NCBI GenBank assembly: GCA_951406725.2
Contig: OX597823.1
Location: 80,042,001-80,106,000 of the forward strand
Length of the DNA stretch: 64,000 bases
DNA from: Octopus vulgaris
Taxonomy: Eukaryota
Direction of reading: 5' to 3'
Every line of letters begins with the position of its first letter. The first letter of the stretch is position 1. Positions 528 to 55,322 of the stretch are shown piece after piece. The position numbers and the translations under genes were made by a program. The notes below the pieces were generated by a model, which was not told the DNA's origin, made no database searches, and was given only the letters and a program-made list of their open reading frames with translations.

Positions 528-1080
528 AGTTCTATATATAAGAGATGAGGAATTATGTACATTATTTACTTTATTTACATTATTTACATTTGACGGATAT
601 TTGACCTCATCTTGTTTGTTGTTAACACAACGTTTCGGCTAATATATCCTCGGGAAATTTCGAACCTGGGTTCTCATTCCTAAGGTATCTTTCGATGTTG
701 TTATTATTATTATTATTATTATTATTATTATTATTATTATTATTATTATTATTATCATTATTATTATTATTATTATTATTATTATTATTATTATCATTAT
801 TATTATCATTCAGGTCACTGCTTGGAATCGGACTTGGAATCTTGGGGTTAGTAGCCCGCGCTCTTAACCACTACGCATATGACCTGAATAATAATAATAA
901 TAATAATAGTAATAATAATAATAATAATAATAATAATAATAATAATAATAATAATAATAATAAAAATACCTTAAGAACGAGAACCCAGGTTCGAAATTTC
1001 CCCCAAGACACCTGATGAAGTCTGGAGGGTATATCAGCCGAGACGTGATGAAGACAAATATCCGTAAAAATGTAAATAAT
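528..1080. mobile_element. Penelope-like pLTR remnant as an inverted pair (left arm minus 528-880, right arm plus 881-1080) with expanded (TAA)n
   Basis: The arms are reverse complements (gaacctgggttctcattcctaagg / ccttaagaacgagaacccaggttc). The same sequence lies next to a GIY-YIG fragment at 46250-46885. A degenerate hammerhead core CTGATGA..cagccGAGAC sits at 1012-1044. Confidence 0.8.
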
Positions 1081-1171
1081 ATCTTTGATTATTGTTTTGC
1101 TTGGCCGATACTGACCTTGGGATAAGCGATGACAACTAAAACAACAAGAATTTTAATATAACATGAACTTA

Positions 1172-1345
1172 AGGCGACGAACTGGCAGAATCGTTACCGC
1201 GCCGGACGAAACGCTTAACAGAATTTCTTCTGAGTTCAAATTCCGACGCGGTTTACTTTGCTTTTCTTTCTTAAGAGCTCGATAAAAATGAGTTGGACGA
1301 TCGATGTAATCGATTTATCCCTTCTCACGAGATTGCCAGCCTTGA
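1172..1345 (+). mobile_element. SINE family A, diverged copy
   Basis: ggcgacgaactggcagaatcgtta...gagttcaaattcc matches the intact copy at 58181. Confidence 0.8.
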
Positions 1346-1852
1346 AACGAATATAACAAGCTATAGTATTTAATTTTATTCACCACTATAAGGCATGGCT
1401 GTATGATTAAGAAAGTGAACACAGTGAAAGCACCCTTCATCAGTTGTCATATATATATATATATATATATGTATTTATGTATATATATATATATATATAT
1501 ATAAGTGTATGTAAACCTGCCTTGTAGACATATATACATGGTAAATTTCTCCGTAAATTATAAAAAAATTGACGAACAACCTAAATCGATTCTGAAACCT
1601 TAATTTGTTCTCACTGGAGGTGTCTACATCACTTAACCAACCCCAAAGAAGAAATACGTAGTCATTCTGTTTATAGACACAACAAATCCACTAGTTTCAG
1701 AGAACTGAAGCTACTAACCTGCATAGTGTATTTAGCGATTTATTTAATATCAGCGATCTGTCAACAGGGATCTTATCTCACCCACAGGTAGTATATACAC
1801 AAACCAAGGGAGTAGACAAACAAATATATAACAAATATGTATGTGTCCATGC

Positions 1853-52819: not shown

Positions 52820-52985
52820 TGGAGGAGGGGTTACTCAATATCATCGACTGGTATTCATTTTATCGACTGCGAAAGGAAGAAAGGCAAAGTCGACCTCGAC
52901 GAAATTTTTATTCAGAACATAGAACCAGAAGAAATGCCGCTAAGCAATTCGTCCGGCAAGCTAATGGTTCTGCCCGCTCGCCGTT
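52820..52985 (-). mobile_element. SINE family A, diverged
   Basis: ttttatcgactgcgaaaggaagaaaggcaaagtcgacctcg...aaatgccgctaagc. Confidence 0.8.
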
Positions 52986-54750
52986 TAGAAGTTGTATATC
53001 ACAAAACTAAGTATTGGGCAATTTGCAGCAAAATAGCGTTTCTATTGAGAATTAGACAATTTATCATAGAAAGGGAGGGAAATAGATTGCTTGATACAAA
53101 CTGCAACGTATATTATCATTAGTTACACACACACACACATAAGTATATATAATTATATACATACGTATTTATTCACATACATATAGAAATTCGATCATAG
53201 AATCTATGTGTGTGTGCGTTTGTGTGTAATTTTTATTCGGTGAATTAAAAAAATTAAACGTATTTTTATATAATTCTGATAATTACATATATAAATTATA
53301 TAATATATATGCACATATATGTATATTTGTATATATATATATATATATATATATATATATATATATATATATATATACACGTATATATATATACATATAA
53401 GTAGATAGACGTATATATACATACACACACACATACATATATATATATATATATATGTATATACATACATATATATATATATATATTCATGTTTAATGAA
53501 TTAATGTACATAAATTCAGAAATGAGGCCTATCATTCTTATATATTTTCTTCGTATGAGTCTGTCCAAATGCTTTCCTTTCATTATCCCTGTGTCGTGTT
53601 TTTTTTTCATTATTCCTCTACCATTAAGAAAATCACCCACAAATCTATTTCCTTATTTGTTTTTAGTCTTAATAGCATGTGTCAATTTTCAATCCCTCAT
53701 GATAGCAATGCATTACAAATTGTCGTATAATAGATACGTGGCGAAATGTCATAGTATATGCAATATGCATTAACCAGCTGGTTATCACATGATGTACTTA
53801 CTATCAATAACAAAACACCAGTAAATGGAATCCCCAGCTGTTATGGTATCTATTCCATGCGAGCCAGCCCTACTTTTATGTTTTAGACATCTTCGTGGAC
53901 ACACCTCTGTTTTAATTTTCGGTTTTTTTCTTTTGTGCACGAATTCAGAGAATGCTAATTATTATTAATGAATTTTTAAGCCATTATGGAAAGAGAAATA
54001 GTAATATGACGATATAACGTTCATGCCTTTTTTTTTTCATGGATATTGATTTCTGGGATCTTTATCGTTTTCATTTTGTACTTGTTTCAGTTACTGGACT
54101 CCCGTCTTGCAAATCGTTCTAGTCAAACAAATCGATCTAATTCTTATTTTTCAGCCTGGTACTTATTCTGAGAGATCTTTCTACACTGGTCCCTCCTCAG
54201 AGAAAATGTATAGTTTCCTTCGTTAAATAATTACATAGAATATTCATCTTACATATAACACCGTCTTCCATATAATACCTATGTCGAGTAGCTTGATTTG
54301 CAAATTTTTAAAATAATGATTCATCATTACTTACTATGTATATTTTTTTGCACCACACAGAAGAAGACCGAGTCCGTTTCCTCTGAGGGGCGTGTGACAG
54401 ACCGTGAAGCAGTCACTTAAGAAATTCAACCATATTTTGTTTTGTTTTGTTTTTACGCACACTAAAAGCTTAGAGGGAACGTGTCAACATTCTTGTCTTT
54501 CACTTAAAGCTCGGGTTTCTGAAATTTAAATCAGGTTTTCTGATTAGCACACCGCTGTGCTAATACGTTTAAATATATATATATATATATATATATATAT
54601 ATATATATATATATATATATGTATGTATGTATGTATGTATGTATATAATGCATATATATATATGTATATGTGTGTATATGTGTGTATATATACATACACA
54701 CATATAATATATACATATATATATATATATATATATATATATATATATAT

Positions 54751-55322
54751 ATACGGCAATAAGAAAATGAAGGGGATCAAGAGGTGGTATTCATCAACGT
54801 TTAGACATTATATTATGTCTATTTATTTATTAAACTCTCTGACGAAGCCCAGAGGCACACCCAAGTACCTTAATTTTATCTACCAAATACTTCGTTTCAC
54901 TGAAGGGATGGAAGTAAAGTGGGGTACTGTGACCTCTTGACTGAAACAGCTGTAAGAAACTATTCTACTTTCTATGTTCTATGTTATATATTTTAATAAT
55001 TACTGGTATTTTTATATATGTAAAGCATAATCTGTTATACATATATGTATATTGTTATAATTGTCTTTTTAAAAAATAAATAAATAGACATAATTTAATG
55101 TCTAAAAGTTGATGAATACCACCTCTTGGTCCCCTCCATTTTTTATTGCCGTATAATTTAAGGGTAAAATAACTTTTTACCCTCACCCATTTATTACATT
55201 CAGTAGTGTAATTGCCACGCAATAAAAAACACTTGTGTATTAATAATTAGGTATTCTACCAGTAGTATATTGCATAGATATTATCCCTTAGTTGGTTAGA
55301 TTCACAACCTCTTCCTTGGAAT
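54751..55322 (+). mobile_element. Insert in (TA)n headed by an inverted copy (54751-54834) of an internal segment (55070-55154); putative PLE pLTR
   Basis: atacggcaataa..gaggtggtattcatcaac versus gttgatgaataccacctc..ttattgccgtat; hammerhead between the arms. Confidence 0.78.
54836..54957 (+). ncRNA. Type-I hammerhead-like motif with ~95-nt stem II
   Basis: tct-CTGACGA-agcccagaggcac...gtgacctcttgact-GAAAC-agct-GTA-aga. Confidence 0.65.

Follow-up and report, generated by a model that had tools for sequence, protein, structure and literature searches.

What produced the short fold-back inserts that recur along a 64,000-nt stretch of Octopus vulgaris DNA (contig OX597823.1, positions 80,042,001–80,106,000; hereafter the window), and what do the hammerhead ribozyme (HHR) motifs inside them say about their origin? 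The window has a GC content of 30–40% and contains many microsatellites. Eight inserts are in question, named A, A′, B, C, D, E, F and G, and an extra insert is named H; their density is about one per 8 kb. An initial annotation had described them as unrelated fold-backs, each carrying an HHR, and as relics of Penelope-like element (PLE) or retrozyme-like families. We found that A and A′ belong to one family of Penelope-like retrotransposons, of which both are truncated copies. The other six are likely scars left by the insertion of tail ends from more families of this kind, whose integration would join two 3′ ends head to head.

The features of the A/A′ family, whose assignment to a Poseidon-type clade comes from motif reading, are as follows.

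528–1080, unstranded: insert A, two 3′ ends from the Poseidon-type family set head to head
Long arm of insert A, minus strand: 3′ end plus a tail of ~31 nt at 528–560; HHR core 1 deleted, GAAACGTT at 629–636
Short arm of insert A, plus strand: CTGATGA at 1012–1018; GAAA changed to GAGA at 1040–1043; stem III lost
46250–46886, minus strand: insert A′, a 5′-truncated PLE from the family of A that retains the end of an endonuclease open reading frame (ORF), a 3′ pseudo-long terminal repeat (pLTR) and an intact minimal HHR
46524–46847, minus strand: C-terminal remnant of a GIY-YIG-type endonuclease (CSCGRLYRGETCRPLKIRVEEHRK...), with one in-frame stop
46303–46348, minus strand: minimal type-I HHR of A′, with stem I GACAC/GTGTT, CTGATGA, a bulged A, stem II, GAAA and the palindrome ATAT

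The coding remnant in A′ provides the most direct evidence of a PLE origin. A 65-aa frame (46644–46841, minus strand) matches a protein of O. vulgaris at 88% and one of O. sinensis at 84%. No Pfam family was matched by this endonuclease (EN) piece or by its short relatives, and the EN name combines our motif reading with the Joint Genome Institute (JGI) label of one relative, GIY-YIG endonuclease. Through that labelled relative, 12 longer relatives were reached, which are ORFs of the reverse transcriptase (RT) type; RVT_1 was matched in four of the five that were scanned, and one (P0009) contains a DKG motif, then RT, then EN, the order seen in Penelope/Poseidon. The endonuclease ORF stop is followed 180 nt downstream by the HHR, which has core position C3 at 46343 and a predicted cut after 46308.

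The two copies also have the ends expected of PLE insertions. The inverted arms of A have lost 22 nt on the left and 18 nt on the right, and (TTA)n/(AAT)n has grown in both. A′ has a short inverted end with a tail at about 46842–46886, and its inverted overlap is merely ~13–17 nt. In each copy the tail of ~31 nt is one-sided, on the long arm in A (528–560) and on the inverted end in A′ (46857–46886), the partner arm having none. The tails thus stand at opposite ends in the two copies and fit the 30–40-bp tail of published PLE insertions (PMC8557442, PMC3846280); the pivots of A and A′ also differ. PLE ancestry, as originally proposed, is therefore demonstrated for this family by its endonuclease ORF end, downstream HHR, inverted partner and one-sided tail.

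Fold-backs were sought by self-BLAST of the window with microsatellites masked, keeping inverted pairs at most 2 kb apart. This search returned 19 pairs, eight of which are pairs of dispersed multi-copy repeats that we take to be SINE-like (short interspersed element-like). Six of the remaining 11 are inserts A–F. The features of B–H are as follows.

17411–17610, unstranded: insert B, a perfect 130-bp palindrome (17411–17540) plus a one-sided extension of ~70 nt, between (TA)n tracts
19378–19647, unstranded: insert C, a decayed fold-back whose two arms each carry an HHR-like motif
21922–22172, unstranded: insert H, perfect 43-bp arms with an extension of ~155 nt, (TA)n on both sides and the geometry of E and F
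33136–33424, unstranded: insert D, a fold-back (33199–33422) plus a one-sided extension of ~63 nt (33136–33198), between (TA)n tracts
35196–35336, unstranded: inverted host-flank duplication, ~70 nt per arm with 64 identities and 6 mismatches, pivot (TA)5
35337–35611, plus strand: insert G, a solo 3′ end with an HHR, ending at (TA)n, inside a (TA)n tract of a dispersed repeat
39950–40542, unstranded: insert E, 169-bp arms (39954–40122/40275–40443) at 97.6%, a 152-nt spacer and (TA)n on both sides
54754–55322, plus strand: insert F, a 78-bp inverted arm (54754–54831 versus 55075–55151), (TA)n on both sides and an extension of ~171 nt

Families were compared within the 64-kb window. Among 45 pairs of inserts, only A–A′ was more similar than all 100 shuffles, and the eight inserts therefore represent about seven unrelated families, which bears out the initial claim of no mutual similarity. 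The companion claim, that each has an inverted repeat, is correct for A–F, which are true fold-backs, but not for G, which has none of its own at 35337–35611, or for A′, with its short overlap. Arm pairs range in identity from 100% to about 86% (identities/mismatches: B, 65/0; C, 96/15; D, 94/13; E, 165/4; F, 73/4), and the HHR cores are mutated like other bases. In every two-armed insert the HHR sense points away from the pivot, giving head-to-head 3′ ends. Inserts B, D, E and F, and likewise H, have a (TA)n run no more than 15 nt away on each side, and G has one on a single side, against a (TA)n background of 6.7% of bases; five of the eight inserts, all except A, A′ and C, are thus in or beside (TA)n, as the initial annotation had said of most.

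To assess whether the HHR motifs exceed chance, we used a relaxed type-I descriptor that demands exact cores, accepts C or T at position 4 and allows a longer palindromic stem III and a bulge on either side of stem II; it was loosened after insert B had been inspected. Five matches were obtained in the window (C3 at 17480+, 17471−, 35492+, 40030− and 46343−), all of them inside named inserts, compared with a mean of 0.077 and a maximum of 2 across 300 local dinucleotide shuffles. The reversed window and the complemented window gave no match. An earlier version of the descriptor gave four matches, one of them spurious (33305−), against 0.15 per shuffle (40 shuffles), and the published RNAmotif descriptor (PMC4209133, Fig. 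S7) gave one, 46343−, while none of 500 shuffles scored any. An excess over shuffled sequence, the check suggested in the initial annotation, is thus seen with both the relaxed and the published descriptor. That each insert carries a hammerhead is overstated: the relaxed descriptor is passed by inserts A′, B (twice), E (left arm) and G, and the other four fail it. Three candidates were rejected: the sole match of a first, too strict descriptor (10360+), which is unrelated to the inserts, and the matches at 20322− and at 33305− (with a 56-nt stem II), both discarded as chance or fold-back artefacts.

The individual motifs differ in preservation. B has a full HHR layout on each strand, with a near-palindromic stem III of 16 nt and the 5′ strand of stem I running across the pivot. 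In E, the left arm is intact (CCGAAGA, 7-bp stem I, stem III ACTCAGAGT), the right arm has one stem I change that breaks the first pair, and the one-sided extension is ~99 nt. The HHR of G consists of GTCT, CCGATGA at 35492–35498, a 7-bp stem II and GAA-ACAGCTGT-A|AGAC, with a predicted cut after 35535. Near misses are the right arms of C (C3 at 19534+, exact cores, a stem II mismatch) and E, and F. The left arm of C (C3 at 19489−) has the mutated core CTGGCGA, A is broken in both arms, and D has cores only (CTGATGA-7 nt-GAAA; C3 at 33314+ and 33305−), with GAGA in its left arm. In F, the direct copy begins 7 nt ahead of an HHR with intact cores (CTGACGA at 54839–54845, GAAACAGCTGTA at 54943–54954), a 3-bp stem I and a 97-nt hairpin as stem II. 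The predicted self-duplex energies of stem III are −13.1 (F and G), −13.6 (E) and −2.4 (A′) kcal/mol.

Apart from the common 15-nt motif, F and G showed no significant relatedness. When F was searched against sequencing runs, 14 of 24 rows held 0.28–0.43 of its words under four organism labels, a result in which a multi-copy family and an orthologous locus look alike; RNA runs were absent from the matching rows, which is no evidence on expression. A metagenome scan for the F/G motif returned 59 loci, which included no relative of any insert and no octopus relative; both stems had at least 4 bp in one of the 59 core matches, essentially the level of chance. In three metagenome contigs (L027, L032 with its match at 3501–3536, and L003) the hammerhead is plausible and belongs to the GAAACAGCTGTA type found in F and G; inspection of L032 revealed no RT-like ORF.

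These counts bear on another origin, in which the fold-backs are MITEs (miniature inverted-repeat transposable elements) or slippage and repair palindromes at (TA)n and the HHR motifs of the weaker inserts C, D and F are coincidental or unrelated. Of the 11 local inverted repeats that are not dispersed-repeat pairs, five have no CYGANGA..GAAA core, so fold-back and HHR are not tied, and bare cores are common, both in the metagenome matches and in the window (25 sites). Chance, however, would hardly place all five full matches in named inserts when 0.077 are expected, or put cores in register in both arms of C and of D. The F cores bracket a hairpin (−29.6 kcal/mol, z = −2.6) that only 3 of 300 shuffles equal in stability, and the asymmetric arms with one-sided extensions are unlike the terminal inverted repeats of MITEs. 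We consider this origin very improbable.

The geometry instead resembles that of EN+ PLEs (Penelope/Poseidon and Neptune). Their insertions are 5′-truncated, often with an adjacent inverted copy, a one-sided tail of 30–40 bp and a bias towards microsatellites (Craig et al. 2021, PMC8557442), and head-to-head palindromic junctions have been described (Arkhipova et al. 2013, PMC3846280). The inserts share with these elements the 5′ truncation, inverted truncated copy, head-to-head junction and tail, as well as the pLTR HHR, (TA)n targeting and occasional target-site duplication (TSD). An 8-bp direct repeat, ATTAATCA, at 19369/19648 brackets C, which has no one-sided extension, and is likely a TSD. 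Insert H has no HHR core and is likely a recent, shorter PLE product. The region between C and the (TA)53 tract (19648–19786) contains a second core-like motif (CTGATGA at 19687–19693, GAAAG at 19705–19709) without stem I, and may be another decayed PLE 3′ end, into which C inserted.

The motifs likewise resemble the minimal HHRs of PLEs, which occur solo and on opposite strands and cleave weakly and only as dimers (Cervera and de la Peña 2014, PMC4209133). The text and Figs S3 and S7 of that study describe a bulged N after A9, an optional N before GAAA, a palindromic stem III and opposite-strand pairs 100–700 bp apart. The octopus motifs share the type-I fold with a short stem I and these bulge, insertion and stem III characters, and as a set they show the same high family diversity, opposite-strand pairs and preponderance of solo relics. 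A long palindromic stem III is reported in Hydra, D. willistoni and Saccoglossus, and the molluscs Lottia and Crassostrea are included (PMC4209133); the Fig. S3 alignment contains no octopus. Two departures from the published descriptor are the CCGA core of E and G, which falls outside its cuganga, and the stem II of F, at 97 nt against a loop limit of 10 nt.

On this model, PLE integration would join two 3′ ends head to head, and, as PLEs with an endonuclease have a minimal type-I hammerhead in their pLTR, any copy long enough would keep one. The GIY-YIG endonuclease of the element would nick AT-rich or (TA)n DNA, reverse transcription beginning at internal RNA sites might leave a one-sided extension on one arm, and early termination could yield products of 50–500 nt. 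Each insert would then be a one-off abortive integration product that decayed neutrally. Anolis carolinensis Poseidon, to whose clade the A/A′ endonuclease appears to belong from its motifs, nicks both strands of AT-rich DNA in vitro and starts RT at two internal sites, and its HHR cleavage is protein-assisted and dispensable for insertion (Frangieh et al. 2024, PMC11167929). The two internal starts could account for the tail.

Several observations weigh against a PLE origin of all the inserts. No TSD of at least 6 nt abuts A or A′. Rfam gave no match in the window at the gathering threshold, and at E ≤ 5 the best 150 of 325 rows, microsatellite or palindrome matches, nearly all of them to miRNA models, included no hammerhead. 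Eight of the 13 motif-bearing arms (both arms of A, C and D, the right arm of E, and F) fail the relaxed descriptor, and the 7-nt spacer of D is too short for a stem II. Families B–H are known from single copies in the window, and the extensions of the five (TA)n-flanked inserts B, D, E, F and H (63–171 nt) exceed the published 30–40 bp. The partner of G is inverted host flank, not element as in EN+ PLEs (PMC8557442, PMC3846280), and most families are ORF-less within the window. The proposed linkage to PLE ORFs holds at A′; when the window was searched in six frames with a hidden Markov model (HMM) of 19 proteins from one clade, nothing else was significant. Given this lack of remnants outside A′, we infer a likely PLE origin of B–H from their outward 3′ ends and geometry, HHR type, (TA)n targeting and the 8-bp repeat at C.

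Could some of B–H be fixed-length non-autonomous elements, retrozyme-like or PLE-derived, in which the fold-back unit is itself mobile? B–H contain no ORF, the perfect palindrome of B has a complete motif on each strand, and a 2026 preprint traces animal retrozymes to PLE pLTRs (10.64898/2026.07.22.740005). Such non-LTR retrozymes also resemble the inserts in being short, non-coding and pLTR-related with a type-I HHR. In addition, four of the eight inserts (B, C, D and F) have a 5′ break that falls in the 10 nt upstream of C3 and not at the cleavage site, a post hoc observation whose count is biased because shorter copies, of which H may be one, lose the core. However, retrozymes are head-to-tail tandems with at least two HHRs on the same strand (10.64898/2026.07.22.740005), and the octopus inserts are inverted pairs or solos; with no such tandem in the window, the retrozyme-like label of the initial annotation is not supported. 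A fold-back RNA would also sequester its own HHR, and A and A′, the sole family seen twice, differ in pivot. We regard a mobile fold-back unit as unlikely and retain abortive PLE integration as the preferred explanation.

The odd points, namely the extensions, the 5′ breaks, the host-flank partner of G and stem II of F, leave the class unchanged. The Anolis Poseidon route (PMC11167929) by itself explains neither the long extensions nor the breaks near the HHR. The 35196–35336 hairpin is a copy of the flank upstream of G, and its arm overlaps a dispersed host repeat. A variant route in (TA)n-targeting octopus PLEs is conceivable, if doubtful: RT would start at sites 60–170 nt apart, the cDNA would stop at an RNA 5′ end just before stem I instead of at the cleavage site, and snap-back priming on nicked (TA)n could copy host flank in inverted orientation. 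With an insert every 8 kb, the short-loop hairpins so formed would supply a large and so far overlooked share of octopus ADAR substrates. Snap-back synthesis onto nearby target DNA has been described for R2 insertions (PMC11371274), and one search of the literature on snap-back junctions, read by title, returned R2 only.

The initial annotation had foreseen that, where both arms hold the motif, read-through RNA could either form double-stranded RNA (dsRNA) or self-cleave. A transcript entering a two-armed insert from either side would run through the antisense arm before reaching its single sense HHR, and in folding calculations core 1 pairs with the opposite arm (probability unpaired: B, 0.00; C, 0.17; D, 0.00; E, 0.00). 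Because the 3′ ends point outwards and the antisense arm comes first, self-cleavage of the fold-backs is predicted to be unlikely. If transcribed, they are predicted to form hairpin dsRNA that sequesters the sole sense HHR, and to serve as substrates of ADAR or Dicer with greater likelihood than as active ribozymes. The choice is thus lopsided, with the dsRNA half of the forecast expected and the cleavage half disfavoured by geometry and folding. In Drosophila, small interfering RNAs (siRNAs) map to inverted Penelope regions (PMC3681739). In lizard, Penelope is massively A-to-I edited, and octopus is among the most hyper-edited species, with exceptionally high dsRNA-forming potential (PMC5625713). 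That editing capacity, together with the near-perfect hairpins of B and E, could suggest that the inserts are kept as host switches between self-cleavage and dsRNA. Changes that break cores or stems distinguish the two arms of A, C, D and E, the geometry disfavours cleavage, and the frames of the window are mainly microsatellite-derived, none being identified as a host gene; we give a host switch almost no credence.

The architecture is real and already published, and the octopus examples are new. Earlier papers describe inverted pLTRs, HHR pairs on opposite strands, insertion into (TA)n, and both siRNAs and editing of Penelope. Thirty-one recently active Penelope-like families are listed for O. 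vulgaris (PMC13282606, Table 1); the main text of that paper contains neither 'hammerhead' nor 'ribozyme', and its supplements, or those of PMC8557442, may list these families or long tails. A title-level search on hammerhead ribozymes and octopus returned nothing on octopus ribozymes. The window is largely a dense, tidy example of a known insertion pattern, and its remaining value is practical. Arm pairs that stem from a single event serve as a clock; B and H, without arm mismatches, likely arose recently. The many families of octopus would allow pivots, extensions and junctions to be mapped against the unsolved mechanism of PLE integration. Part of octopus hyper-editing may come from short-loop fold-backs, which are candidates open to test, as Penelope is in lizard (PMC5625713).

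Some further features were noted. At the 5′ end of G (35338–35390), LESYIYGILPKK is followed, after a frameshift, by MNLQ; this segment was unmatched by the 19-protein HMM and presumably resembles the last residues of PLE endonucleases. Two abundant dispersed repeats occur, the first at 57422–57802 with many copies and the second at, for example, 4824–5000 and 58179–58356; the internal (TA)n tract of the first hosts insert G and borders insert E. Unclassified low-copy repeats of 290–350 nt lie at 22205–22506/48518–48864, at 56383–56670/59562–59848 and at 29760–30092/58694–59014/63014–63160. An inverted pair at 12187–12240/12576–12663 has arms of 31–37 bp at 92% plus a 19-bp piece, a spacer of ~340 nt, ends at (TA)n and no hammerhead core. 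Finally, an element at 43070–43613 lies within a perfect 23-bp inverted repeat and contains telomere-like (CCCTAA)n and a fold-back (43402–43560; 67 identities, 2 mismatches); it has no hammerhead core and is possibly a MITE or Helitron-type relic.

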